Of a stretch of DNA of 64,000 bases, positions 3-27,740 are shown one piece after another. The notes under the pieces were generated by a model. It saw only the letters and a program-made list of their open reading frames with translations, was not told the DNA's origin and did no database searches. The translations under genes and the position numbers were made by a program. This DNA comes from Sideroxydans sp. (GTDB lineage: Bacteria > Pseudomonadota > Gammaproteobacteria > Burkholderiales > Gallionellaceae), in the NCBI GenBank assembly GCA_028707175.1, contig JAQTUV010000005.1, positions 207,618 to 271,617 on the forward strand, in the 5' to 3' direction. The first letter of the stretch is position 1, and every line of letters begins with the position of its first letter.

Positions 3-1139
3 GAGGGCGTCGCCATCATCGACACCGTCAAAGCATCACACGCCGAAGAATTCTTCAGACGCTTGGAACAAGTCGCCTCTTACGATGAGATCACCACCAT
101 CGTGCTGAATCATCTGGAGCCAGACCACAGTGGTGCATTGCCCGAACTGATGCGCCGCGCACCGCAGGCCAAGCTGTATATCTCGACCAAAGGGCAGTTG
201 ATGCTCAAGGCATTGGTGAAGGATGCCGCACTCAAATACAACGTCGTTGAGACAGGTGACCATGTCGAGCTGGGTGGCCGCACATTACGTTTCTTCACCA
301 CGCCTTTTCTACATTGGCCAGATACACAATGCACGCTGATCGAAGAGCAAGGCATCTTGTTCAGTGGTGATGTGTTTGGTTGCCATTTCTGTGATGCGCG
401 TTTGTTCAACGACCAAGTCGGCGATTTCCGCTTCTCTTTCGAATACTACTACCAGCACATCATGCGGCCTTTCCGCGAGTATGTGCTGAATGCACTCGAA
501 CTGCTGGAGCCGCTGCCGCTCAAACTCATCGCTCCCGCCCACGGCCCTATCTTGCGCGAAGCCCCGCTGAGTTACATGCAGCGCTACCGCCAACTCGCTT
601 CGCCCTTGTTGCACAACGAAGTGGGCGCAAACAATAAATCATTGCTGGTGTTCTACATCTCGTCCTACGGCAACACCGCACGCATGGCACAAGCCGTGGT
701 GGATGGTGCGGAGACGGTGCCGGGTGTGCGTGTCTCGATGTATGACTTGCAAGCAGGTGGCAACTTACCTTTCGTGGATCTGATCGAAGAGGCGGATGGA
801 CTCGCCATCGGCTCACCCACCATCAACGGCGACGCGGTGAAACCGGTGTGGGACTTACTTTCTTCGCTGGCCGTCATCAAGGTGCGCGACAAACTCGGCG
901 CGGCATTCGGCTCGTATGGCTGGAGCGGTGAGGCGATCAACATGATCGAGGACCGTCTGCGCGGCCTGAAGATGCGTGTGCCGATCAAAGGCGTACGCGC
1001 ACGCCTCATCCCCACCGAAGAAGAGCTCGCACTTTGCCGCGACCTCGGTGTGCAACTCGCACAACATCTCTCCGGCACGGTTCAAAACCGTGTCATCTCA
1101 ATGTCAGAACTATTCGCACAGGAGCAATCACATGCCTAA
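3..1139 (+). CDS. Flavodiiron protein (metallo-beta-lactamase-like diiron domain + flavodoxin-like domain), 5' end truncated by the window edge
   Basis: The reading frame is open from the window edge upstream of the first ATG at 63. It has the diiron-type motif NHLEPDHSG, and a C-terminal flavodoxin-like half (LLVFYISSYGNTARMA...GSPTINGD). The TAA stop at 1137-1139 overlaps the next gene's ATG. Confidence 0.8.
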   Translation, partial: EGVAIIDTVKASHAEEFFRRLEQVASYDEITTIVLNHLEPDHSGALPELMRRAPQAKLYISTKGQLMLKALVKDAALKYNVVETGDHVELGGRTLRFFTTPFLHWPDTQCTLIEEQGILFSGDVFGCHFCDARLFNDQVGDFRFSFEYYYQHIMRPFREYVLNALELLEPLPLKLIAPAHGPILREAPLSYMQRYRQLASPLLHNEVGANNKSLLVFYISSYGNTARMAQAVVDGAETVPGVRVSMYDLQAGGNLPFVDLIEEADGLAIGSPTINGDAVKPVWDLLSSLAVIKVRDKLGAAFGSYGWSGEAINMIEDRLRGLKMRVPIKGVRARLIPTEEELALCRDLGVQLAQHLSGTVQNRVISMSELFAQEQSHA

Positions 1140-1416
1140 GGCAAACGTCACTTTTGAAAAATTGGGCATCACCGTTTCTGTGCCAGCAGGCACACGTCTG
1201 ATCGAAATATCGGAAAAGGTCGGCGCCAGCATCACCTATGGTTGCCGCGAAGGTGAATGCGGCACCTGCATCATGAAGATCAAGAGCGGCATGGAGCACA
1301 TGAGCGAACGCTCGGTGCTGGAAGACAAGGTGTTGCAAGAGAACATGGCCGGTCGGAGTGACCGTCTCGCCTGTCAGGCACAAGTGCTGGGCGGCGACAT
1401 CGTCGTGAAGGCTTAA
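1132..1416 (+). CDS. [2Fe-2S] ferredoxin
   Basis: ATG at 1132 is preceded by GGAG (1121-1124). It carries the cysteine motif GCREGECGTCIMKI plus a distal RLACQA. The ORF-track start at 976 lies inside the upstream gene, so the shorter start was chosen. Confidence 0.85.
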   Translation: MPKANVTFEKLGITVSVPAGTRLIEISEKVGASITYGCREGECGTCIMKIKSGMEHMSERSVLEDKVLQENMAGRSDRLACQAQVLGGDIVVKA

Positions 1417-1449
1417 CGATTTTTTATAACCCAAGTAGGAGTAAGCGCA

Positions 1450-1809
1450 ATGCCAAACATCACATTTTCTAGCCCCCTGCACAAAGACAAGACCATCTAC
1501 ATGCCCGCAGGCAGCCTCGTCAAGACCGTACTGGTCATGGCTAAGGAGAATCACATCCCCATCGATTTCGGTTGCGAGAACGGGGAATGTTCGACCTGCC
1601 TCGTGAAGGTCACCAACCTGTCCAACAAGGGACCGATGGCTGGCCCGCTCACCGACCGCGAGATCACCGTGTTGAAGCAGGAAGGCAAGATCACTCAGGC
1701 GCAAGTCGATGCGATGAAAGTGAATGACCTCGTCACCACCGAATGGCGTTTGGCGTGCCAGATGGTATTGCGTGATGAAGATCTGCTCATCGAGTACCCC
1801 AGCAAGTAA
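1450..1809 (+). CDS. [2Fe-2S] ferredoxin-like protein
   Basis: It carries the motif FGCENGECSTCLVKV plus a distal RLACQM. AGGAG lies upstream of the ATG. It is co-directional with, and closely spaced to, the preceding ferredoxin gene. Confidence 0.8.
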   Translation: MPNITFSSPLHKDKTIYMPAGSLVKTVLVMAKENHIPIDFGCENGECSTCLVKVTNLSNKGPMAGPLTDREITVLKQEGKITQAQVDAMKVNDLVTTEWRLACQMVLRDEDLLIEYPSK

Positions 1810-1818
1810 GGAACCATC

Positions 1819-2505
1819 ATGCGAGCCGACAGCACGCGCAGGTATCAAGCCCCCCTTTCTAACTCTCTGGTGGAACAACTAGCCAATCGACTAAGCCCGC
1901 AAGCGGACAAGTCGCTGGTTACCCCGCAAGCGGGAGAGAGAACGAACGCGAGAAGCGATCTTGAATCTTCCGGCCTGTATGCGGAACTGATGTCGCATGC
2001 TGTCGGCTTACCTAACGATGTCGTGTTCGCACAGATGATCACCAGCCAGATCGCGGGCGAAGGTGCATTGCCGCCTGGCTTGGGATTGGATGCGGATGAC
2101 TTTGCCTCTTTGTTGACATTGCACTACCCCGGCGTCGAACTCGTCGTTCGTCATTCGCTATACGCCGTTGATCCGCGCGCGCTGGAACGAGACGATGTAC
2201 TCGCATTGCTACTCGAACATCGCGCGCTCCAAAATCGTTCTGAAGAATGGATGGCGGAAGTGGTGACCAATGCATGTATGGCGAACGACCACCTGTGGCA
2301 AGACTTGGGTTTGTGGTCACGCGACAATCTGAGCCAGCTGATGAAACAGAACTTCCCCTCGCTGGCCGCCAAGAACGTTCACGACATGAAGTGGAAGAAA
2401 TTCCTCTACAAGCAACTCTGTGAAAAGGAAGGTATCAACGCCTGTCGTTCGCCCAGTTGTGAGCACTGCGTAGATTATTTGAAGTGTTTCGGGCCAGAAG
2501 ATTGA
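1819..2505 (+). CDS. nifQ: NifQ (molybdenum processing for FeMo-cofactor synthesis)
   Basis: The C-terminal signature WKKFLYKQLCEKEGINACRSPSCEHCVDYLKCFG is typical of NifQ. An RBS-like AAGGAA precedes ATG 1819. The first ~55 codons contain REP-like sequence (ccgcaagcgg / ccgcaagcgggagag), so an alternative start at ATG 1990 cannot be excluded. Confidence 0.85.
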   Translation: MRADSTRRYQAPLSNSLVEQLANRLSPQADKSLVTPQAGERTNARSDLESSGLYAELMSHAVGLPNDVVFAQMITSQIAGEGALPPGLGLDADDFASLLTLHYPGVELVVRHSLYAVDPRALERDDVLALLLEHRALQNRSEEWMAEVVTNACMANDHLWQDLGLWSRDNLSQLMKQNFPSLAAKNVHDMKWKKFLYKQLCEKEGINACRSPSCEHCVDYLKCFGPED

Positions 2506-2595
2506 TTCAATCTAGCGGCATCCAACATCGGAGATATTGTGTGTTGAGAAACACTACCCCCATCCGTGCGTGTGTTGTTGGCGCTTTAGTGCCGT

Positions 2596-2692
2596 ACAAC
2601 CACGGCCTACCTCTTGCGGGTGCAACCTCCCCCCTGCAAGGGGGAAGGAATGTATCCCCTCCCCCTTGCAGGGGGAGGGCTAGGGTGGGGGT
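2596..2692. repeat. GC-rich REP-like palindromic repeat cluster (family A: ...cccctcccccttgcagggggagggctagggtggggg)
   Basis: Two adjacent hairpin units are present: cctcccccctgcaagggggaagg at 2626-2648, and a second unit at 2655-2691. They are related to the units at 7348-7462, 9084-9203, 11722-11836 and 44900-44945. Confidence 0.75.
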
Positions 2693-2719
2693 AGAAACCA
2701 GCAAGTCCCACGTACCCCA

Positions 2720-3601
2720 ATGACCACCGACCGCGCCACTGCTGCCTACCTCGGACTCGCCATCGGCGACGCACTCGGTGCGACGGTGGAATTTATGACG
2801 CCGCGCGAGATCCAGTTGCAATACGTGGTGCATGACAAACTCAGAGGCGGTGGATGGTTACATCTCAAACCAGGACAAGTCACTGATGACACGACGATGG
2901 CGCTGGCATTGGGCGAGTCCATCATCACTGCAGGGATGGTCGATGCATTGTCGGTAGCGCAAGCGTTCGATGAATGGATGCGCGGCAAGCCGGTAGACAT
3001 CGGCAACACGGTGCGACGCAACTTGCTTCAATTCCGCAAGACGGGGAATCCAGAAGCGCCCTATTCCGACCATGACGCAGGCAACGGTGCCGCGATGCGG
3101 CTACTGCCTGTTGCACTATCCACCTTAGGCCAGCCGACCGAATGTGTGCGCGCCGCAAGCCGCGCGCAAGCACATGTCACACACAACTGCCTGCTCTCCG
3201 ATGCGGCTTGCGAGACCTTGATCCTGATGGTGCAAGATGCGTTACTCGGCGCGGATAAGAAACATCTGCTGCATCAACATGCGCGTCCCTTGATCGCTCA
3301 ATTCCCACAATTCAAATTCCGCGCGATACGCCAGATCCAGAATCCCAGTGGATACATCGTCGATACGATACAAGCCGTGTTCCAAAGCTTCTTTGATACG
3401 GATGATCTCCGCTCATGCCTGATCGATGTGGTGAATCGCGGAGGAGATGCAGATACGACTGGCGCGATTGCGGGGATGTTGGCTGGGGCAACTTATGGAC
3501 TGGATGATATTCCCAACGAATGGCTCAAGGTGTTGGATACGAAGACGCGCCAATCCTGTGAGCGTCAGGCAAAGTCACTTATCCAAATTGCACGGCATTA
3601 A
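2720..3601 (+). CDS. draG: ADP-ribosyl-[dinitrogen reductase] glycohydrolase (ADP-ribosylglycohydrolase family)
   Basis: The N-terminus AAYLGLAIGDALGATVEF and the C-terminal GGDADTTGAIAGMLAGATYG motif are typical of ADP-ribosylglycohydrolases. At 293 aa and in a nif context, it fits DraG. Confidence 0.8.
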   Translation: MTTDRATAAYLGLAIGDALGATVEFMTPREIQLQYVVHDKLRGGGWLHLKPGQVTDDTTMALALGESIITAGMVDALSVAQAFDEWMRGKPVDIGNTVRRNLLQFRKTGNPEAPYSDHDAGNGAAMRLLPVALSTLGQPTECVRAASRAQAHVTHNCLLSDAACETLILMVQDALLGADKKHLLHQHARPLIAQFPQFKFRAIRQIQNPSGYIVDTIQAVFQSFFDTDDLRSCLIDVVNRGGDADTTGAIAGMLAGATYGLDDIPNEWLKVLDTKTRQSCERQAKSLIQIARH

Positions 3602-3740
3602 GAATCTTGCTTTGTGATTCACACAGCACGGGTATCCATAAATTTCTGCCTAGAGTAACTAGGTCATCCCAAAATTATTCCGAACCCGCGCCCGAACCTG
3701 AATTTAGTTAGACTGACGGCAGCAATTTCAGGAGACCACC

Positions 3741-3965
3741 ATGATGAACAGATTCGAAGTTCCCATTGCCCAACTTACATTCACCCAAAAATTAGACCTC
3801 ATGGAAACACTTTGGGCAGACATGATCGGCAACGAAAAAAATCTGGAATCTCCTGACTGGCATGCAAACATTCTCAATGAACGCGAAGCTGCCTTGAATG
3901 CAGGCCAACTGACTGTATCTGACTGGTCAGAAGCCAAAGAAAGAATCAAGAAAAACGTCGCATGA
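3741..3965 (+). CDS. Type II antitoxin (putative addiction-module component family)
   Basis: It is a 74-aa protein with the pattern ...KLDLMETLWADM...DWHANILNEREAALNAGQLTVSDWSEAKERI, characteristic of the small addiction-module antitoxins paired with ParE/RelE toxins. Its stop overlaps the ATG of the downstream toxin remnant (ATGA at 3962-3965). Confidence 0.7.
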   Translation: MMNRFEVPIAQLTFTQKLDLMETLWADMIGNEKNLESPDWHANILNEREAALNAGQLTVSDWSEAKERIKKNVA

Positions 3966-4260
3966 AGATCAAAATCCTCAGTAGCGCAGAGGACGATCTC
4001 GAACAAGGCCACCGATTCTACAAATCACAAGCAGATGGCCTCGGCACCTACTTTCTAGTCTAGATACGCTCTACTCCGACATCGACTCACTGGCCTACTT
4101 TGCGGGAATACATCGCGTCGTACTGGGCTACCACCGGCTACTCTCCAAACGTTTCCCATTCGCTGTGTACTACCGCGTTGCCGACGACGTGGTCACCGTA
4201 TTCGCCGTTCTTGATTGCCGTCGAAACCCGAGCTGGATTAGGAAAAAACTATCTAAGTGA
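3962..4260 (+). pseudogene. ParE/RelE-family toxin gene disrupted by a frameshift
   Basis: Frame 1 reads MKIKILSSAEDDLEQGHRFYKSQADGLGTYFLV and then stops (TAG 4061-4063). The sequence continues from 4060 in another frame as LDTLYSDIDSLAYFAGIHRVVLGYHRLLSKRFPFAVYYRVADDVVTVFAVLDCRRNPSWIRKKLSK, ending at TGA 4258-4260. Joined, the two parts give a ~100-aa RelE/ParE-like toxin. Confidence 0.7.
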
Positions 4261-4338
4261 TGAGGCCGAACAAACGTTTTTAGTGGGTGAAAATTTAACT
4301 TGAACCTGAACCTTAATGTGAATATGGAGGGCGGGTCC

Positions 4339-4469
4339 TCGGCCATAAGAGTCGATGGGGATTTGCTGAGAAGGCTGCTTGAAAATTCTAAAGTGAGGTC
4401 CGCTTCACTCCTGACAGCGGACGTTCAAAACTAAGAGTTTGATGATGCTTGGCCGTCGCTTGCTAACCC
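4339..4469. repeat. Left arm of a 131-nt imperfect inverted repeat flanking a two-gene cassette
   Basis: It is the reverse complement of 5742-5872. The exactly conserved blocks are tcggccataagag, the 37-nt core gtccgcttcactcctgacagcggacgttcaaaactaa (4398-4434), and ccgtcgcttgctaaccc. Confidence 0.85.
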
Positions 4470-4642
4470 ATAAGAGCCATATCAGATATGCCCTACTGAT
4501 TCCGAGCCTAGCCCCTTTAACCCTCTGATAGATTGTATCGTTGATATCCAATTTAGTTTGATGCATGATTGCAAAATGTATTCTTGACTGAAGCATCCAT
4601 GTAATTGCTTCGAGTAGTCTATTCATTTAAAGGTATTTTCAG

Positions 4643-5035
4643 ATGAGCAACACGAACAATTATCCCAATGGGCTCATTGCAGCATTGAGCGGTACGCGAT
4701 CTGCACCACCGCCCCCTCCCCAAGGATTATTGGGTTTACTTCGTCGACCTGAGGTTCAGGGGCTTTACTACAATAGACAAAAAATCGTGCTGGATGGTTA
4801 TAGATTTATCGGGTGCCGGTTTGACAACTGCACCCTAGAAGTATCTTCGTTGAATTTTGATTTGATTAGATGCGTAATTGATCCAACTACGGTGATTTCT
4901 TATGGGCCGTCGGTTGCAAAGATTATTCAACTCTTTAATGGCCGCTACGATTGGGCATCAAAAAACTTTACAGTGCCTTTTGTTCCTGTCAAAAATGATG
5001 ATGGAACCATAACGATAACTGATAGCGCTGTATGA
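4643..5035 (+). CDS. Hypothetical protein with a proline run and a short pentapeptide-repeat-like segment
   Basis: This is a 130-aa ORF in visibly AT-richer DNA. It contains PPPPPQ followed by YRFIGCRFDNCTLEVSSLNFDLIRCVID, which has a five-residue periodicity. It is translationally coupled to the next ORF by an ATGA overlap. Confidence 0.5.
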   Translation: MSNTNNYPNGLIAALSGTRSAPPPPPQGLLGLLRRPEVQGLYYNRQKIVLDGYRFIGCRFDNCTLEVSSLNFDLIRCVIDPTTVISYGPSVAKIIQLFNGRYDWASKNFTVPFVPVKNDDGTITITDSAV

Positions 5036-5646
5036 CAAATACAGGAGCTGCTGCAGAACTTAAGGCTAATATCGAAATGCATCCAATGCATAGTCAGGTA
5101 TTGCTGGTTGCTTTGTCTGTTATTGCGGCAATTTGCATTATCTGTAGTGCAATCCTCATTGCAACAGGATTGGCGAGCGGTTGGATATTTTTGCTCTTTG
5201 CCGCTTTAACTCTTGTCGGTGTTTATCTGCTATGGGTTAAGTCGCAGTCCGATATTGATCTTCAGGGCGCACATCCGACTCAGATAGCTTTGGCGAACGG
5301 CACTACTTTTTCGACCGACAGTCGAATACTGCGATCTCCAGAAGGGGTACGAGGTGTAGCAAAACTCTGTGATGAGATATTAAGCCGCCACCCACTTCCA
5401 AACCCAGATGGGCTCGTGGATACTTATGCGCAGCCAATACCTGACAGTAAGAACGAGGCTATAGCCTATGCAAATAACATCAATAGGACTACGCAAATTG
5501 CAACCAATGAAGTGATAGATGTATTGGGTCTTGGTAACGCATCACCTAAGAATTTAAATATACAAACTGCTGGTACGACTGAAAACGAGCCCGACGAAGT
5601 TCTGCTCCAAAGTCTGAACACTTCAATTGTTGATTCGTCAGACTAG
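5032..5646 (+). CDS. Hypothetical membrane protein (two predicted TM helices, soluble C-terminal half)
   Basis: This is a 204-aa ORF with hydrophobic stretches VLLVALSVIAAICIICSAILIATGL and WIFLLFAALTLVGVYLLWV. It overlaps the upstream ORF by 4 nt. I recognise no family. Confidence 0.5.
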   Translation: MTNTGAAAELKANIEMHPMHSQVLLVALSVIAAICIICSAILIATGLASGWIFLLFAALTLVGVYLLWVKSQSDIDLQGAHPTQIALANGTTFSTDSRILRSPEGVRGVAKLCDEILSRHPLPNPDGLVDTYAQPIPDSKNEAIAYANNINRTTQIATNEVIDVLGLGNASPKNLNIQTAGTTENEPDEVLLQSLNTSIVDSSD

Positions 5647-5741
5647 ACCCGCGTTATTAAAACCACCTTCACCCGCACCAACTCCTCGAATTATTGGAAT
5701 CAGCTTCGTAATTAATTTGAGCAGACATTAACGACTGCTTA

Positions 5742-5872
5742 GGGTTAGCAAGCGACGGTCGATCACCTACAAACGTTTAGTTTTGAACGTCCGCTGTCAG
5801 GAGTGAAGCGGACGACCCTTCAGAACATTCAATCTGCCTTTTCAGCAATTCCCCAGCGTCTCTTATGGCCGA
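5742..5872. repeat. Right arm of the 131-nt imperfect inverted repeat
   Basis: It is the reverse complement of 4339-4469. The 37-nt core at 5777-5813 is identical to the reverse complement of 4398-4434. Confidence 0.85.
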
Positions 5873-5894
5873 GTCTCCGACATCCGACACTTCG

Positions 5895-6743
5895 TTACTT
5901 AGCCCCCAGCAATTCCTTCATCCAAGCTTGCTGATAAGCACGCTTGCGCTTTTGCTCTAGCAGCTTGCGAATATGCACCTTGGCTTGTTCGTAACCCAAG
6001 ATGCTGGCTTCGCTGATGGTGTCGCAACGCATTACATGGAAGCCAAGTTCAGATTCGATCGCACCGCTCACTTCGCCTGCCTTCAACTGGAACAATGCGG
6101 CTTCCAGTTCGGGGAAGAGTTTTCCCCGCGGTAGGTCGCCTAACTTGCCCCCCTCAAGCGCCGTCGGACATTCGGAATGTTTGAGTGCCTGCTCTTCGAA
6201 ACGCAGGGGCTCTTTCGCCAATCTCACCGCGATCTCTGAGATGCGCTTTTGCGCAACTTCACGCGTGTTCTCGGCGATGGTCTCATTGATGGTGATGAGG
6301 ATGTGGCGCGCCAAACGTGTCTCAGGTCTACGGAACTGTTCTGGATGGTATTGGTAATACAGTTCGACATCCATGTCGCTCACATCTTCTGCGCGGGCAC
6401 CTACCTTTTCGAGGATGGCTTCCACTTTCATCTCGCGCTCTAGAGCACTGGCAAAACCAGCCTCATCCAGACCGTTGCGCGCCATGTCTTCGATGTATTC
6501 CTCTTCGCTTTGATAACGTCCGCGTATCTCCTGCATGGCGAGATCCAAGGTGGAGGCCGGCACCATCGCACCACGCGCCTCGGGTGAAGCGAGGACGCGT
6601 GTCTCCAGTCGGTGCTGTTTCTGCGCCATGGTCTGCACACGTTCGGACTCTTCCGGCTGTAATGCGGCGGGCGCTTTGCCGTAGATCTTTTGAGCCGCTT
6701 TGAGGGCGAGGTAAGCCACGCTACTCTCAATCATTTCGTGCAT
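5895..6743 (-). CDS. nifM: NifM (parvulin-type peptidyl-prolyl isomerase for Fe-protein maturation)
   Basis: It is 282 aa with a C-terminal PpiC/parvulin-like domain (RLARHILITINE...GFHVMRC). It sits directly downstream of nifW-nifZ, as in the Azotobacter-type nifUSV-cysE-nifWZM arrangement. Confidence 0.8.
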   Translation of the reverse strand: MHEMIESSVAYLALKAAQKIYGKAPAALQPEESERVQTMAQKQHRLETRVLASPEARGAMVPASTLDLAMQEIRGRYQSEEEYIEDMARNGLDEAGFASALEREMKVEAILEKVGARAEDVSDMDVELYYQYHPEQFRRPETRLARHILITINETIAENTREVAQKRISEIAVRLAKEPLRFEEQALKHSECPTALEGGKLGDLPRGKLFPELEAALFQLKAGEVSGAIESELGFHVMRCDTISEASILGYEQAKVHIRKLLEQKRKRAYQQAWMKELLGAK

Positions 6744-6765
6744 ATTCTTTCCTTTGTAAGAAGGA

Positions 6766-6846
6766 CTCCGCTCGCCCTGAGCTTGTCGAAGGGTGGCTTC
6801 GCAAATATCCGTTCATGGTTCGACAGGCTCACCACGAACGGAGGGG
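6766..6846. repeat. REP-like repeat family B (gctcgccctgagcttgtcgaaggg ... ggttcgacaggctcaccacgaacgg)
   Basis: It occupies the nifZ-nifM junction and overlaps the last ~11 codons of nifZ. A related unit lies at 48306-48380. Confidence 0.65.
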
Positions 6847-7298
6847 GACTCATCGTCGTAGACCTTTGTCGCTTCAAGTGCGGATTCGGGCACTTGCAAA
6901 ACATGGTCGTGAAATATCACGTGATACTGCACACCGTTCTGTTCGTCGCGAAACACTTTCAATATCTCGCCGTCCATGCCGGGCGTGACGCGCACTTCTC
7001 CACGCACCGTTAACGTGATCCTGCTGCGTACTTTTTCGCGGCTCTCGAATTTGCTGGGCACCCATACTTCGTCGATGCTGATCAGCTCTTCTTCACGAAA
7101 GCCGACGATCTTGTTCTGCTCAAGAATGTTGACGGTGTAGATGAGCTGGTCTTGCAAAAAGGTGCCGACGTTCATAACGAAGCCGGTGGAGCCACGTCGT
7201 ATCAGCAGGGTACCGATTGGCACGCCCGGATAGGTGCCGTCATTGCGCACATTGCGAATGATGCGGACTTCGTCGCCGAATTCGAATTTAGGCAGCAT
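6813..7298 (-). CDS. nifZ: NifZ
   Basis: The N-terminus FEFGDEVRIIRNVRNDGTYPGVPIGTLLIRRGSTGFVMNVGTFLQDQLIYTV matches the NifZ signature. It lies between nifW and nifM. Confidence 0.85.
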   Translation of the reverse strand: MLPKFEFGDEVRIIRNVRNDGTYPGVPIGTLLIRRGSTGFVMNVGTFLQDQLIYTVNILEQNKIVGFREEELISIDEVWVPSKFESREKVRSRITLTVRGEVRVTPGMDGEILKVFRDEQNGVQYHVIFHDHVLQVPESALEATKVYDDESPSVRGEPVEP

Positions 7299-7347
7299 TT
7301 GATTTTTCAGTGTTACGCATAATCATTTGTGAAACTCCTGATTCCAG

Positions 7348-7462
7348 TCCCCTCTCCCGCAGGCGGGAGAGGGTTAGGGTGAGGGATGTCGAGTCAAAAT
7401 CACTCTATCCGGTACGCACAGCCCCTCATCCCCGACCCTTCTCCCGCCTACGGGAGAAGGGA
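7348..7462. repeat. Inverted pair of family A REP-like units
   Basis: The pair consists of tcccctctcccgcaggcgggagagggttagggtgaggg (7348-7386) and the oppositely oriented cccctcatccccgacccttctcccgcctacgggagaaggga (7422-7461). It sits in the nifW-nifZ intergenic gap. Confidence 0.8.
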
Positions 7463-7473
7463 GTTAAACGCCA

Positions 7474-7806
7474 TCACGCCCCCGCCTTGTTCACCGTGAT
7501 CGAACTAAGCGGGACGAACTTGGTTTGTGGTTCGTGCATGTGGAACACTTTGAATACTTTTTCCGTGAGTGCGTCTGACTTCACGAAGTCTTGATAGGCC
7601 TGTTGGAGTTTGGCGATGTACAAAGTGCGGCGCGCATCTTCGTCTTTAGGCAAGGTCTCTTTGCCTAGGTAGTTATGGAAACGTTGCAAGATATGCAGTC
7701 GATTCACTTGGACTACCGAGGCATCGTATGCGATGCCGAAATAATCTAGGAAGTCTTCGGCAGAGACCAATTCTTCCATCGCTTCGTCTAAGGTCAGTGT
7801 GTCCAT
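7474..7806 (-). CDS. nifW: NifW (nitrogenase-stabilising/protective protein)
   Basis: It is 110 aa, and the sequence LVSAEDFLDYFGIAYDASVVQVNRLHILQRFHNYL is typical of NifW. Confidence 0.85.
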   Translation of the reverse strand: MDTLTLDEAMEELVSAEDFLDYFGIAYDASVVQVNRLHILQRFHNYLGKETLPKDEDARRTLYIAKLQQAYQDFVKSDALTEKVFKVFHMHEPQTKFVPLSSITVNKAGA

Positions 7807-8327
7807 TTCGAATTCCTTTCCGCGTTCTTTTCATTGATCATCGATTGTTGCAGTACATCCAATAGCGCTTTCCCACCAATGCGATCATGACTGTCCAACT
7901 CAACCAGTTTTTCCAACATCGCTTTGCCCGCGTTGTAATTGCCCAAGCGTAGATTGACGTAGCCCGTCGCTTTCAACACCATGAGATAGAAGCGCACCAA
8001 CCCCATTGATCGCATCACACCGGCACCGATGTTCGCTTCGCACAAATAGCGCCATGTATCGGGGAACTCTAGGCGTCGCCCGACCACGGCCAAGGTGCTC
8101 TCGGCGACCAGCAACGCATCCTCAAGACGGTGTTGGTAGTAGTAATAGCGATACAACGCGACCAAGACCATGAGGTGTTGCGGTGCCATCAAATTGGCTC
8201 GCAGCAACAAGCTCTCCGCTTCTTCGCCGCCGTATTTGTCCGCCGCATCCACCAGCAGTCGCGCGACATCTCCCGCTAGTGGCTCATCGAAATACAACTC
8301 AGCTTGTTCAAAATCGAGCAGATCCAT
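7794..8327 (-). CDS. Hypothetical helical-repeat (TPR-like) protein embedded in the nif operon
   Basis: This is a 177-aa ORF. Its start at 8327 abuts the cysE stop at 8329, and its end overlaps the nifW start by 13 nt. Helical-repeat character (YRYYYYQHRLEDALLVAE..., GNYNAGKAMLEKLVELD) was judged by eye. Confidence 0.6.
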   Translation of the reverse strand: MDLLDFEQAELYFDEPLAGDVARLLVDAADKYGGEEAESLLLRANLMAPQHLMVLVALYRYYYYQHRLEDALLVAESTLAVVGRRLEFPDTWRYLCEANIGAGVMRSMGLVRFYLMVLKATGYVNLRLGNYNAGKAMLEKLVELDSHDRIGGKALLDVLQQSMINEKNAERNSKWTH

Positions 8328-8328
8328 A

Positions 8329-9225
8329 TCAAACTTTCCTCAAGCTACGCGCCACTTCGGTACCGCACAGATCATCTGCTTCACAGGTCTGGCATTGACC
8401 ATCGACGGGCTCGCCCTGTTTACGCAACTGGCCTTCGAGCACTTCGATACGTTCCATCAGACAGGCGATGGCTCGCCCCACGGGATCTGGGATGAGGTGA
8501 TGATCGAGGTTGATGCCGTAGATGTTGTCTGTGCCGGCTTCTTCTGTGCGCAGCACGATCTTGGCTGGGATGCCCACCACGGTACGGTCGGCAGGCACGT
8601 CTTTCACCACCACCGAGTTAGCCCCCACACGCACGTTGCAGCCTAAGGTGATCGCACCCAATATCTTTGCGCCGGCGCCAATCACTACGCCATCACCCAA
8701 AGTCGGGTGGCGTTTACCTTTGTTCCATGTCGTACCACCCAGGGTCACCCCGTGATACAGCGTGACATCGTCGCCGATCACGGCTGTCTCGCCGATCACC
8801 ACACCCGCGCCATGATCGATGAAGAAACGGCGGCCGATGGTCGCACCCGGATGGATGTCGATGTTGGTGATGAAGCGTGCGAACCACGACAGCAAGCGTG
8901 CCAAGTAACGCAAACCCATCGTCCATAAACGATGCGCGATACGTTGCATGAGGATGGCGTGTACACCGGGGTAAGTGGTGAGCACTTCAAAACGGGAGCG
9001 CGCAGCGGGGTCGCGCTGGAATACACAACTCACGTCTTCACTCAGCAGGGTGAATAGATTCAACGATTTTTTACGCTGAACACAGCCCTCACCCACCCCT
9101 TCGGGGCACCCTCTCCCGCCTGCGGGATAACCAGCGACTTGCCCGCTTGCGGGCTTAGTCGAATAGCTAGTAGTTCCAACAGAGGGGTTGGGGAGAGGGT
9201 GAGATTTGATCATCACGTCTTCCAT
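8329..9225 (-). CDS. cysE: Serine O-acetyltransferase (nif-associated CysE/NifP); start uncertain
   Basis: It has the hexapeptide-repeat core ([41 protein letters not shown]) and the SATase N-terminal region ([23 protein letters not shown]). ATG 9225 has a GAGAGG RBS, but the first ~54 codons are REP family A sequence. An alternative TTG start exists at 9063. Confidence 0.85.
9084..9203. repeat. Family A REP-like units inside the 5' region of the cysE ORF
   Basis: The units are agccctcacccaccccttcggggcaccctctcccgcctgcggg (9084-9127), the hairpin gcccgcttgcgggc (9141-9154), and gaggggttggggagagggtgag (9182-9203). Confidence 0.75.
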
Positions 9226-9234
9226 GATGGCCTC

Positions 9235-10380
9235 TCAGTGCGCCGCACCGGGCTGTGTGCGCCCGATGTAGCGTTGATATAAGAACAACAATTCTTGATC
9301 GGCAGGCGAACGTTTCGCACGTTCCGAGAAGGTACGGATGTCGGGCAGCAAGGCGCGCGCTTCCGCCTGACTCAGATTGAGTCCCATCGTGGCATAGGCA
9401 GCGATGATGCCGTGTGCACCGGAATGTTTGCCGACCACCAACTTGAGATGACGCCCGACTTCTTCGGGCTCGAAACCTTGATAGGTGGAGGGATCTTTGA
9501 GCAGTCCATCCACATGGATGCCCGCCTCGTGGGTGAACACACCCTCGCCCACCACACTCTTCTGCCACGGCACAGGACGACCCGATGCAGCGGCGACCAA
9601 TTTTGAAAGCTCGGTGAAATGCGTGAGGTCGATGCCGGTGTGCATGCTGTAAAGCTTCTTCAAGCCAAGCGCCACTTCTTCCAGTGGTGCGTTACCCGCA
9701 CGTTCGCCCAAACCATTCACTGTCGTGTTGATGTGCGTCGCACCTGCCACGGCCGCAGCAAGACTGTTGGCAGTGGCGAGGCCGAGGTCGTCGTGTGCAT
9801 GCATCTCGATCTCGATGTCGCAAGCAGCACGCAATGCAGAGATGGCTTTATGCACACCGAAAGGCTCCATCACACCGAGGGTATCGGCATAACGGATACG
9901 CTGCGCACCAGATGCCTGTATTGCTTCTACGACTTGCAACATGAACTCTGGATCGGCGCGCGAAGCATCTTCACAACCGACGATGATCTCCATACCCGTG
10001 TGATACGCACGCGGCACCACTTCGTAGATGGTGTCGAGCACCCACTGGCGGTCGCGTTTGAGTTTCTTACTAAGATGGATGTCCGACACAGGGATGGAAA
10101 GGTCGAGCATCTGTACATCGACCTGCTCGCATGCCTTCACGTCTTCCATGCACATCCGATTCCACGCGATCAGTTTCGCTTTTAATCCGAGTGACGCGAT
10201 GGCATTGATCCCATCACGTTCCTCTTCGCCCATCGCGGGGATACCAACTTCCAATTCCGGCACGCCGAGTGCATCGAGCTTGCGCGCGATGGCTAGCTTC
10301 TCATCCAAAGTGAACGCCACCCCGGCGGTCTGTTCGCCGTCGCGCAGGGTAGTGTCATCGATGATGATGGTGCGAGTCAT
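9235..10380 (-). CDS. nifV: Homocitrate synthase NifV
   Basis: It is 381 aa. The N-terminus IIDDTTLRDGEQTAGVAF and the HAHDDLGLATANSLAA motif are typical of the HMGL-like/homocitrate synthase family. It follows nifS. Confidence 0.9.
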   Translation of the reverse strand: MTRTIIIDDTTLRDGEQTAGVAFTLDEKLAIARKLDALGVPELEVGIPAMGEEERDGINAIASLGLKAKLIAWNRMCMEDVKACEQVDVQMLDLSIPVSDIHLSKKLKRDRQWVLDTIYEVVPRAYHTGMEIIVGCEDASRADPEFMLQVVEAIQASGAQRIRYADTLGVMEPFGVHKAISALRAACDIEIEMHAHDDLGLATANSLAAAVAGATHINTTVNGLGERAGNAPLEEVALGLKKLYSMHTGIDLTHFTELSKLVAAASGRPVPWQKSVVGEGVFTHEAGIHVDGLLKDPSTYQGFEPEEVGRHLKLVVGKHSGAHGIIAAYATMGLNLSQAEARALLPDIRTFSERAKRSPADQELLFLYQRYIGRTQPGAAH

Positions 10381-13294: not shown

Positions 13295-13371
13295 TGGTGC
13301 GCTCGGCGGGAGTCGAACCCACGACCCTTGGCTTCGGAAACCAATACTCTATCCAGCTGAGCTACGAGCGC
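13295..13371 (-). tRNA. tRNA-Arg (anticodon CCG), CCA encoded
   Basis: The minus strand folds into a full cloverleaf. The acceptor stem is GCGCTCG/CGAGCGC. The D arm is GCTC..GAGT. The anticodon stem TTGGT/GCCAA carries the loop TTCCGAA. The T arm is GTGGG-TTCGACT-CCCGC, followed by a 3' ACCA. Confidence 0.92.
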
Positions 13372-26214: not shown

Positions 26215-26835
26215 ATGAAATCAGAAGACGTCGCACAATACCTAAAAGACAATCCACAGTTCTTTGAAGAACACGCTCAATTGCTCTCCGAGATTACTCT
26301 GCCCCACCCACATGGCGGTCGTACCGTCTCACTGTCTGAACGACAACTGCTCACATTGCGCGAACGTGTCAAAGCGCTTGAATTAAAACTACACGAGCTC
26401 ATTGCCTACGCTAAAGAGAACGACGCCTTGCAGGCCAAGGTACATCAATTCAATTGCTCGCTTTTCGGCGCACATGATCGCACCACACTCAACAATCTAG
26501 TCGTACAAAACCTGCGCGACATCTTTGCGATACCGCATGCCTCTTTGCATATTTGGAAAGATGATGCTCCCAATGCCGAAGCGCTAGCGTTCGCCGATGC
26601 ACATCAAGAACCCGTCTGCACCCACCACGCTGCCGAAGGCACACTGGCTTGGTTCGGTGAGGCAGGGGAACATCTTCGCTCGTTCGCCTATCTACCGCTG
26701 CGCGAAAACGGTCAGACTATCGGCATGCTCATTCTCGCGAGTGAAGATAAAGAACGTTTCTATCCTGAGATGGGGACGATTTTCTTATTACGCATCGCAG
26801 ATGCATTAAGCAGTGCATTCCGCTTACAAGCCTGA
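26215..26835 (+). CDS. DUF484 family protein (YigA-like)
   Basis: It is 206 aa. The N-terminus VAQYLKDNPQFFEEHAQLLSEITLPH is typical. It lies between dapF and xerC, as in many proteobacteria. Confidence 0.8.
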   Translation: MKSEDVAQYLKDNPQFFEEHAQLLSEITLPHPHGGRTVSLSERQLLTLRERVKALELKLHELIAYAKENDALQAKVHQFNCSLFGAHDRTTLNNLVVQNLRDIFAIPHASLHIWKDDAPNAEALAFADAHQEPVCTHHAAEGTLAWFGEAGEHLRSFAYLPLRENGQTIGMLILASEDKERFYPEMGTIFLLRIADALSSAFRLQA

Positions 26836-27740
26836 TGTCTGATGTCGTTGTTGCGCCCGCACCTCTCACACTGACGGGCTACCTCGCTTATCTGAACAAT
26901 GAGAAGCAGTACTCCCCACACACATCGGAGAATTACGCGCGTGACATCCGCCGCCTGTTCACACTAGCAGACGCGACGCCGCTACCTGACCTCAAGAGCC
27001 ACCACATCCGGCGCTACATCGCGCAGTTGCACGGTGGCGGACTGAGCGGCCGTTCGCTCGCACGCGTGTTGTCTTCATGGCGCGGCTTCTACAACTACCT
27101 GATGCGCGACCACGGTTGCGTAAGCAACCCCTGCGTCGGCTTGCGTCCACCCAAAGCGCCTAAGACATTGCCTCATGCGCTATCTCCCGACGAAGCATCG
27201 AAGCTGATGGATATGCCCGTTGAGACGTCCATTGATGCGCGTGACAAAGCAATGTTCGAATTGCTCTACTCTTCGGGATTGCGCCTAGCTGAACTGGTGG
27301 GGCTGGACCCAATCGATATGGATTTCGCCGATGCATCGGTACGTGTAACAGGTAAAGGCAACAAGACTCGCATCGTCCCGCTAGGTAGTCACGCCATCAC
27401 TGCGCTACAAGCGTGGCTCACCGTACGCGAGCAAGTGGCGAAGCCTGATGAAACCGCTTTGTTCGTAGGCAATAGAGGCGCGCGCATCTCTCCACGCACG
27501 GTAGAACTTCAGTTGCAAAAATGGGCGGCCAAGCAAGGACTCAACACTGGAGTGTACCCTCACATGTTGCGCCACTCGTTCGCCACACATGTGTTGCAAT
27601 CTTCGGGCGACCTGCGCGCCGTACAAGAGATGCTCGGTCATGCCAGCATCTCGACCACACAGGTCTATACCCATCTCGATTTCCAATATCTTGCCAAAAT
27701 CTATGACGGCGCACATCCTCGCGCCAAGAAAAAATCATGA
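26835..27740 (+). CDS. xerC: Tyrosine recombinase XerC
   Basis: It is 301 aa. The catalytic residues occur in the order RLAEL...HMLRHSFATH...LGHASISTTQVYTH. The dapF-DUF484-xerC synteny supports the call. Confidence 0.9.
   Translation: MSDVVVAPAPLTLTGYLAYLNNEKQYSPHTSENYARDIRRLFTLADATPLPDLKSHHIRRYIAQLHGGGLSGRSLARVLSSWRGFYNYLMRDHGCVSNPCVGLRPPKAPKTLPHALSPDEASKLMDMPVETSIDARDKAMFELLYSSGLRLAELVGLDPIDMDFADASVRVTGKGNKTRIVPLGSHAITALQAWLTVREQVAKPDETALFVGNRGARISPRTVELQLQKWAAKQGLNTGVYPHMLRHSFATHVLQSSGDLRAVQEMLGHASISTTQVYTHLDFQYLAKIYDGAHPRAKKKS

Follow-up and report, generated by a model that had tools for sequence, protein, structure and literature searches.

Several described systems offer a comparison for genes enclosed by repeats. 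In integrons each cassette carries one attC site, internally dyad-symmetric (R''-L''...L'-R') and set in a single direction; in the super-integrons of Vibrio the repeats measure 123-126 nt. The pdif sites of Acinetobacter plasmid modules are 28 bp long (11-6-11) and are bound by XerC/XerD. IS1071, of the Tn3 family, has 110-bp terminal repeats, encodes its own transposase, begins with a Tn3-type GGGG and makes 5-bp duplications. Mobile insertion cassettes (MICs) include Tn3-derived examples in Xanthomonas (PMC4337579), and recombinase-in-trio (RIT) elements have 34-bp ends (PMC10214605). Here we compare with such systems a locus in a 64,000-nt stretch of DNA from Sideroxydans sp. (Gallionellaceae; assembly GCA_028707175.1, contig JAQTUV010000005.1), called "the window" throughout, in which two inverted arms of 131 nt enclose two genes of unassigned family between draG and nifM. 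We conclude that 4339-5872 probably belongs to a family of mobile cassettes specific to Gallionellaceae: a non-autonomous unit, bounded by the arms and mobilised in trans, that has entered a palindromic site between draG and nifM and carries a captured two-gene module. The family is a previously undescribed, transposase-less cassette family of these iron-oxidising bacteria; a literature search turned up nothing on such repeats in Sideroxydans.

Direct evidence that arms and cargo move as one unit comes from another member of the family, in which the arms enclose a 4.6-kb operon encoding a PhnC/D/E-type transporter (above NCBIfam cut-offs), an enzyme of the 2-hydroxyacid-dehydrogenase family and a LysR regulator. 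From its gene order and from what is known of PtxD we take this operon to be ptxABCDE-like (phosphite). The ptx unit measures 4,887 bp, is 99.94% identical between two genomes, and is 99.8-99.9% identical across three different genomic contexts. By BLASTN the homology begins with the outermost base of one arm and ends with the outermost base of the other; because it stops exactly at the arm tips in unrelated contexts, arms and cargo move together, and the near-identity indicates spread that was both recent and horizontal. Thus one unit is seen at several sites in the case of ptx, and a junction lacking the insert is seen at the locus of the window itself, in the 19-nt draG-nifM gap of its relatives.

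That locus was compared by way of NifM. In the window 2,293 nt separate draG and nifM; in the closest NifM relatives (93% identity; L030-L032, the L numbers being our locus identifiers) the two genes are convergent, the gap is 19 nt and there is no insert, and this gap serves as an empty site. Relatives at 85-86% NifM identity have different genes after nifM and no arms. The initial annotation, made from the letters of the window alone, had placed a cassette between draG and nifM: the position stands, but the interval also holds an antitoxin gene and a ParE-like toxin gene. The latter is frameshifted at ~4055-4060, and its repaired protein covers the whole PF05016 profile (E=0.006). This toxin-antitoxin pair (3741-4261) is likewise missing from the closest relatives of the locus and, as it lies outside the arms, we treat it as a separate insertion.

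The arms themselves lie within an inverted repeat of 144 nt (4326-4469 / 5742-5885), 83% complementary and with a spacing of 1272 nt, and the family unit is 131 nt; the arm length and the identity of about four-fifths first estimated by eye were therefore sound. All three blocks that had been called exact are seen in the pairwise alignment: the outer block TCGGCCATAAGAG and the inner block CCGTCGCTTGCTAACCC do not differ between the two arms, and of the 37-nt core GTCCGCTTCACTCCTGACAGCGGACGTTCAAAACTAA the window has exactly two copies, one per strand and where they had been placed, against 0.00 occurrences expected from shuffles. The hairpin noticed within the core has a 7-bp stem, GTCCGCT/AGCGGAC (4398-4422), followed by GTTCAAAACTAA. 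Inward of the left arm the inverted repeat is weakly prolonged to ~4480 (ATAAGAGCCAT). Against an nhmmer profile, which was built from the copies found by our scans and defines the 131-nt unit, the left arm scores 137.6 bits (E 2e-41) and the right arm 142.6 bits. The unit is of low GC content (0.40-0.47, versus 0.54-0.61 in the nif genes), as had been remarked for the ~1.27 kb between the arms, but the low-GC tract already begins at ~3600 and hence also takes in the toxin-antitoxin pair. In Logan SRR22315508, a short-read assembly of the apparent source sample, two unitigs (L024, 1402 nt; L025, 1198 nt) end inside the arms, and cassette and nifM fall on separate unitigs (L024 / L025); we attribute these breaks to the inverted arms.

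Copies elsewhere were sought with the core pattern, its loop left free, in one genome per GTDB species. This gave 11 stretches in 9 records, mostly named Sideroxydans or Gallionella, with at most two strict-core matches per genome; a looser pattern, run over JGI metagenomes, gave 12 further loci. The family thus comprises ~24 copies in 22 loci other than the window, found in Gallionellaceae only, and both inverted pairs and solo arms occur among them. Similar ends were present in none of 72,556 plasmids, 50,697 phages and the IMG/VR collection. In the family alignment the outer edge of the unit is sharp, opening with TCGGCCATAAGAGAC (4339 and 5872 in the window); the inner end reads ...CGCTTGCTAACCC and is followed by a weak echo of ATAAGAGNC, a faint inward continuation of ~10 nt. 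The hairpin stem is (nearly) invariant family-wide and its loop is variable. The arms are built as mosaics in which 'A' and 'B' halves meet at the invariant core; such mosaicism shows recombination among arm copies. In the window the left arm is pure 'A' and the right arm pure 'B', and both match full-length copies elsewhere.

Six arm pairs are known in the family, all convergent with the TCGGCCATAAGAG tips outward. Their cargo differs, and it includes toxin-antitoxin and defence-type genes (Table 1); the L019 pair also encloses two ORFs (open reading frames) that by eye resemble HigB/HigA, plus unannotated ORFs. The initial annotation had seen no clear target-site duplication in the window, and we find no direct repeat there or at any other of the six pairs, the near-identical, recent ptx copies included. 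What recurs outside the tips is instead a target motif: G at -9 in 20 of 24 flanks and C at -7 in 19 of 24. As the flanks of the ptx copies otherwise differ, these two bases belong to the target. The two flanks of the window, GGAGGGCGGGTCC and GTCTCCGACATCC, are imperfect reverse complements of each other, and across the family the left flank matches the reverse-complemented right flank of the same locus at 11.0 positions in 25 nt, versus 7.8 for other loci (permutation p ~0.005).

Existing arms may also be used as targets. An inverted copy of the arm tip stands 18-22 nt outside the tip in five to eight flanks: L005 has a degenerate inverted arm remnant at 2270-2352 (67 nt, arm positions 1-67), 19 nt outside its left arm, and tip remnants of ~10 nt are found 18-22 nt outside the arms of L014, L022 and L023 and the right arm of L005. 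From these outlying tip copies we infer that elements can also adjoin each other back to back, with a spacer that reads N6-GNC-N1..4-GNC-N6. Taken together, these features of the flanks suggest that a palindromic target is recognised symmetrically and that joining takes place without a staggered cut.

The cargo of the window consists of two translationally coupled genes, as first described (4643-5035 and 5032-5646, the start of ORF2 overlapping the stop of ORF1 via ATGA), and no other ORF of at least 50 aa in the unit is a member of a conserved family. There is no match to either in Pfam, NCBIfam, PADLOC or PHROG. ORF1 has the core motif LDGYxFxGCRFDNCTL..., and its family numbers 432 representatives of 50% clusters at E<=1e-3. 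Its AlphaFold model (pLDDT 80, core >90) is a short beta-solenoid with brief repeated strands and two helices; the top Foldseek matches, which are to pentapeptide-repeat proteins (SV2 luminal domains, AlbG, Rfr23 and MfpA), are non-significant (E>=0.04, TM<=0.28). Hence, of the proline run and pentapeptide-like character first ascribed to this protein, the run and a beta-solenoid core are borne out, but pentapeptide-repeat assignment finds only those non-significant matches and none in Pfam. For ORF2 the two transmembrane (TM) helices first noticed are predicted with confidence; otherwise its model (pLDDT 57) is of low confidence and too poor for a fold search.

ORF2 follows ORF1 in every other genome where it was found, and the module is present across Beta- and Gammaproteobacteria. 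Because it occurs elsewhere without arms, we consider it to have been captured. Such arm-less homologues, whose existence at a conserved position would have spoken against the cassette, sit at other positions. The copy on the JGI contig L026 is 89% identical to the window at the DNA level, the similarity being limited to 4626-5631, that is to the two genes. The many Logan contigs of 1.1-1.6 kb with a diverged module were suspected of being broken at arms; the three that were fetched (L037-L039) have none. Elsewhere the module neighbours barnase/barstar, a PIN-domain protein, a restriction-modification subunit and genes of mobile genetic elements, neighbourhoods typical of toxin-antitoxin or defence islands, and we regard ORF1+ORF2 as a candidate toxin/immunity or defence module.

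Table 1. Coordinates of the arms, cargo and neighbouring genes in the window and of related features at other loci (L numbers).
Feature	Sequence	Coordinates	Strand	Remarks
Left arm (terminal inverted repeat), 'type A' variant	window	4339-4469	+	repeat search, pairwise and family alignment
Left arm outer tip, TCGGCCATAAGAG	window	4339	+	alignment
Left-arm core	window	4398-4434	+	pattern search, family alignment
Right arm (terminal inverted repeat), 'type B' variant	window	5742-5872	-	outer tip at 5872
Right-arm core, same 37 nt	window	5777-5813	-	pattern search
Left target flank, GGAGGGCGGGTCC	window	4326-4338		G at -9, C at -7 (4330, 4332)
Right target flank, GTCTCCGACATCC	window	5873-5885		GTC at -9..-7 read towards arm
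Linker within element	window	4470-4642	+	no homology to arm-less L026 cargo copy
Sigma70-like site TTGATA-17-CATGAT	window	4541-4569		inside linker; promoter scan
ORF1, 130 aa	window	4643-5035	+	Pro-rich N-terminus (variable), conserved beta-solenoid core
ORF2, 204 aa	window	5032-5646	+	two N-terminal TM helices, conserved C-terminal region
Linker, cargo to right arm	window	5647-5741	+	L026 homology stops at 5631
NifQ	window	1819-2505		profile hit
DraG	window	2720-3601		profile hit
Neighbouring insert outside arm-bounded unit	window	3602-4338	+	not in closest relatives
Antitoxin gene, intact	window	3741-3965	+	PF09720, Pfam
ParE-like toxin gene, frameshifted	window	3962-4261	+	repaired translation
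NifM	window	5895-6743	-	profile hit; NifZ also a neighbour
Arm pair	L003	arms 5134/6972		cargo: HipA-family YjjJ toxin
Arm pair	L005	arms 2352/4873		cargo: Cache-PAS-GGDEF protein
Arm pair	L019	partial arm 7679, full arm 12694		cargo: 194-aa tyrosine-recombinase catalytic domain and other ORFs
ptx unit, S. lithotrophicus metagenome-assembled genome	L002, L008	L002 3699-8000 + L008 1-585
ptx unit, Gallionella metagenome-assembled genome	L011, L004	L011 3366-8000 + L004 1-252
ptx unit, metagenome contig, third context	L017	1-4273
ORF1+ORF2 without arms	L026 (JGI contig)	4648-5603		beside AlpA, DnaB-like helicase, HsdM
ORF1+ORF2 without arms	L028 (Sulfuricella)	5001-6013
ORF1+ORF2 without arms	L029 (Sideroxyarcus)	5001-6028
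IS91-family element copy	L036	~1490-4058

We propose that an enzyme encoded elsewhere in the genome excises or copies the whole unit, from arm to arm, and inserts it at another site. The conserved blocks and the invariant hairpin of each arm could form the platform for enzyme binding and synapsis. Insertion would be a conservative, recombinase-like cutting and rejoining in the middle of intergenic sites that are palindromic or form hairpins, of which the spot between the convergent draG and nifM may be an example; we favour this over other modes of joining because there is no duplication, because each tip has G(-9)/C(-7) beyond it, and because a site's two flanks are palindromic to each other. 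The coupled cargo genes have a promoter-like site of their own. The right arm tip lies 22 nt from the stop codon of nifM, and the insertion may have remodelled the nifM 3' end.

Among the candidate explanations put forward at first was a non-autonomous passenger cassette bounded by foldback elements or miniature inverted-repeat transposable elements (MITEs). The passenger cassette has held up, through the varied cargo, the 99.9% identical unit in three contexts and the empty junction; the label is inexact, because the target is not duplicated, a related autonomous element did not turn up, and single arms are without terminal repeats of their own. A near neighbour of this idea is that the unit is a mobile insertion cassette or cargo-carrying MITE of the ordinary DDE type, moved by the transposase of a resident insertion sequence (IS), whose duplication is absent, very short or eroded. 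Inverted ends around passenger genes with no transposase inside suit it, and TAAGAG-type motifs, which by eye recur in direct orientation near arm positions 8, 93 and 132, recall the multiple transposase-binding sites of Tn7- or Mu-type ends. Yet even the recent ptx copies, like all six pairs, have no direct repeat, the tips read TC...GA rather than TG...CA, plasmids, phages and IMG/VR hold no similar end, and the target is symmetric, with G-9/C-7 at both sides. We therefore think this explanation unlikely and rank staggered-cut DDE transposition below recombinase-like insertion. On inspection the tips did not fit a Tn3-type reading (GGGG...TAAG) either. Less probable still is that the arms are independent repeats, such as repetitive extragenic palindromes (REPs), terminator-like repeats or hot-spots, the pairs being by-products and the cargo having been moved by homologous recombination. 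Several arms are indeed solo, the A/B mosaics imply recombination among copies, and arms lie in variable, island-like regions. However, REPs and bacterial interspersed mosaic elements run to tens to hundreds of 20-40-nt palindromes per genome, and here a profile search of the window, relaxed to E<=100, found no copies beyond these two in 64 kb; with no more than two strict-core matches in any genome, the arm is not the abundant generic REP that the initial annotation had named as a refuting finding, and another such finding, a lack of conservation of the ORFs, does not hold either, as both belong to conserved families. Besides this low copy number, all six pairs point tip-outward; the ptx unit ends at both tips in three contexts, where homologous exchange should leave variable end points; and the arms have no internal dyad beyond the 7-bp hairpin, no T-tract, no intrinsic terminator and no sigma70 promoter. 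A sigma54 promoter in the inner arm (TGGCCGTCGCTTGC) was dismissed on inspection, as its GG-GC spacing is one base short and 'B' arms lack the GG.

The two remaining candidates of the initial annotation have not fared well. Long inverted repeats with an identical 37-nt core could support inversion of 4470-5741, so that an outside promoter would or would not drive the module, and a tyrosine recombinase of 194 aa, catalytic domain only, does lie inside the L019 pair. Against such a switch, there is no invertase in or beside the unit (3602-5894), the only tyrosine recombinase of the window being a 301-aa Xer-like ORF at 26835-27740; cargo is wholly different between pairs, unlike that of phase-variable loci; the promoter-like site is inside the unit; and a pure 'A' left arm with a pure 'B' right arm leaves no chimerism, and so no trace of inversion by a crossover at the core in this copy. 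We hold a switch to be very improbable. Slightest of all, in our estimate, is the chance of an RNA function, in which pairing of the arms would give a ~130-bp stem, sequestering or marking the cassette mRNA, or in which each arm by itself would serve as a leader or small RNA. The arms would pair if co-transcribed, and by eye the hairpin plus GTTCAAAAC is loosely like CRISPR-type repeats (clustered regularly interspaced short palindromic repeats). Nevertheless Rfam has no match to the arms at the gathering threshold, and at a relaxed one only noise of E>1; folds of single arms are no better than those of shuffles (z-scores -0.7 to +0.3); and RNAalifold on 18 arms returns only the invariant hairpin, with a covariation term of +0.29, the hairpin being uninformative on covariation because it never varies. 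A hand-proposed enclosing stem (columns 43-49 / 96-102) was matched by 35 of 500 shuffles and is unconvincing. Arms stand in either orientation relative to neighbouring genes, and the module exists arm-less in other genomes. A solitary CRISPR-like repeat was set aside too, as the core is never arrayed in the genome or metagenome scans and the only CRISPR model match (19 bits, E=1.7) lies elsewhere in the arm than the core.

In favour of our preferred reading, that of a cassette mobilised in trans, is the lack of any transposase or recombinase in 4339-5872 (ORF list, profile hits), which the initial annotation had also observed. Several points weigh against it. We see no recombinase that is common to the arm-bounded units, and neither the 24 copies nor the collections of plasmids, phages and IMG/VR yielded an autonomous copy, with the same ends around a recombinase or transposase. 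This particular cargo is seen inside arms in one instance only, and the movement of the copy in the window is accordingly deduced from that of the family. At least four solo arms (L006/L015, L007, L009 and L021) are followed by 4.9-9 kb of inner sequence with no detectable partner; such arms need explaining, by decay, very long cargo or one-ended activity. Most source sequences are metagenome-assembled genomes or metagenome contigs. Finally, to our knowledge, 131-nt arms without target-site duplication fit no IS or transposon family.

With regard to the enzyme, L013 has an IS91-family transposase and a Xer-like integrase (43-2550) inside its arm, against the arm's inner end. This IS91-family element is a widespread IS with ends of its own, a terminal hairpin of ~80 nt and then TTAA, which a Methylomonas plasmid copy shares. 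Solo copies of the hairpin abut arm tips at L003 (~6973-7050) and L021 (~9284-9365), the latter MITE-like with TTAA on either side, and the arms so abutted begin TTAACC instead of TCGGCC. The idea that the target flank is a relative of this IS91 terminal hairpin ('pal80') was given up as a weak lead: only 2 of 22 flanks (L005 left and window right) exceeded the 99th percentile of shuffles.

Some side observations concern the surroundings of the arms. The solo arm of L021 has all of a type I Zorya system (ZorA-D; PADLOC E values reaching 0) directly on its inner side (911-9032), and KAP/PifA-like and other PADLOC candidates lie on the flanks of the arm at L014/L016. NifM of the window has 282 aa versus 286 aa in the closest relatives, and a different C-terminal tail (window 5895-5906 versus L030 4054-4065). 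The rest of the window is housekeeping (nifVSU, the Xer-like recombinase, mreBCD, gatABC, gltBD and others), and its sole Rfam hit at gathering level is a tRNA gene at 13298-13371 (-), just past the nif/isc block.

The arm family provides a sequence-defined vehicle of gene flow in Gallionellaceae, environmentally important iron oxidisers that are hard to culture. One family of ends carries a phosphite-oxidation operon, a HipA-type toxin, a diguanylate cyclase and the two-gene module, and solo arms stand near anti-phage systems (Zorya). The 131-nt arm profile offers an inexpensive way to locate recently acquired cargo, and it also explains assembly breaks around such cargo.

How does the unit compare with the described systems? 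In its passenger genes within inverted terminal repeats, proposed mobilisation in trans, transposase not inside and cargo that varies within one end family, it resembles MICs and cargo-carrying MITEs (e.g. MIC231 of the Bacillus cereus group), but MICs end in repeats of 20-50 bp that come from a known IS or Tn3 relative, and their insertions have target duplications, and here the ends are ~131 nt without duplication. IS1071 shares unusually long inverted ends, a home in Betaproteobacteria and the bracketing of catabolic cargo, yet none of its own transposase, GGGG start or 5-bp duplications holds for the window arms. The likeness to IS91 and other HUH elements lies in the lack of a target duplication, in a conserved subterminal hairpin followed by a short motif (GTTC), and in the IS91-family element and hairpins that abut the arms of L013, L003 and L021. 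IS91 elements, however, do not end in long inverted repeats, the one seen here has distinct ends of its own, and the arm hairpin is ~60 nt from the tip where homology ends.

The nearest parallels in organisation are pdif modules and integrons. Like pdif modules, arm-bounded units have diverse cargo including toxin-antitoxin genes, inverted flanking sites, no recombinase of their own and no target duplication, one module occurs in several contexts, and adjacent modules abut; the difference is that the window arms are 131 nt with an internal hairpin, are chromosomal, and have no 11-6-11 site readable in their tips. When the tip and flank logo was inspected by eye against the dif consensus, a dif/pdif reading failed, only G-9 and C-7 being conserved outside and no TTATG-type XerD arm following CATAA+6. 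With integrons the family shares species-group-specific repeats of ~60-140 nt, sharp cassette edges, presumably a recombinase encoded outside, and promoter-poor cargo that is uncharacterised or of toxin-antitoxin or defence type. The window arms differ in lacking the attC dyad and in forming an inverted pair around the cargo, and the window has no IntI gene; an attC reading was rejected, as the arm ends TCGGCCATAAGAG... and ...GCTTGCTAACCC are not complementary. Long arms, an invariant hairpin, no duplication and palindromic targets together match no catalogued IS or transposon family, and the enzyme could add a new mobilisation mechanism. We suggest, tentatively and as a possibility that we ourselves rather doubt, that the arms constitute a new cassette-mobilisation system, with ~140-bp ends bearing an invariant hairpin, an enzyme acting in trans, no duplication, palindromic targets or existing tips as insertion sites, and back-to-back arrays. 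If so, it would be a chromosomal analogue of integrons and pdif modules, shuttling phosphite, signalling, toxin-antitoxin and defence genes among iron-oxidising Gallionellaceae.

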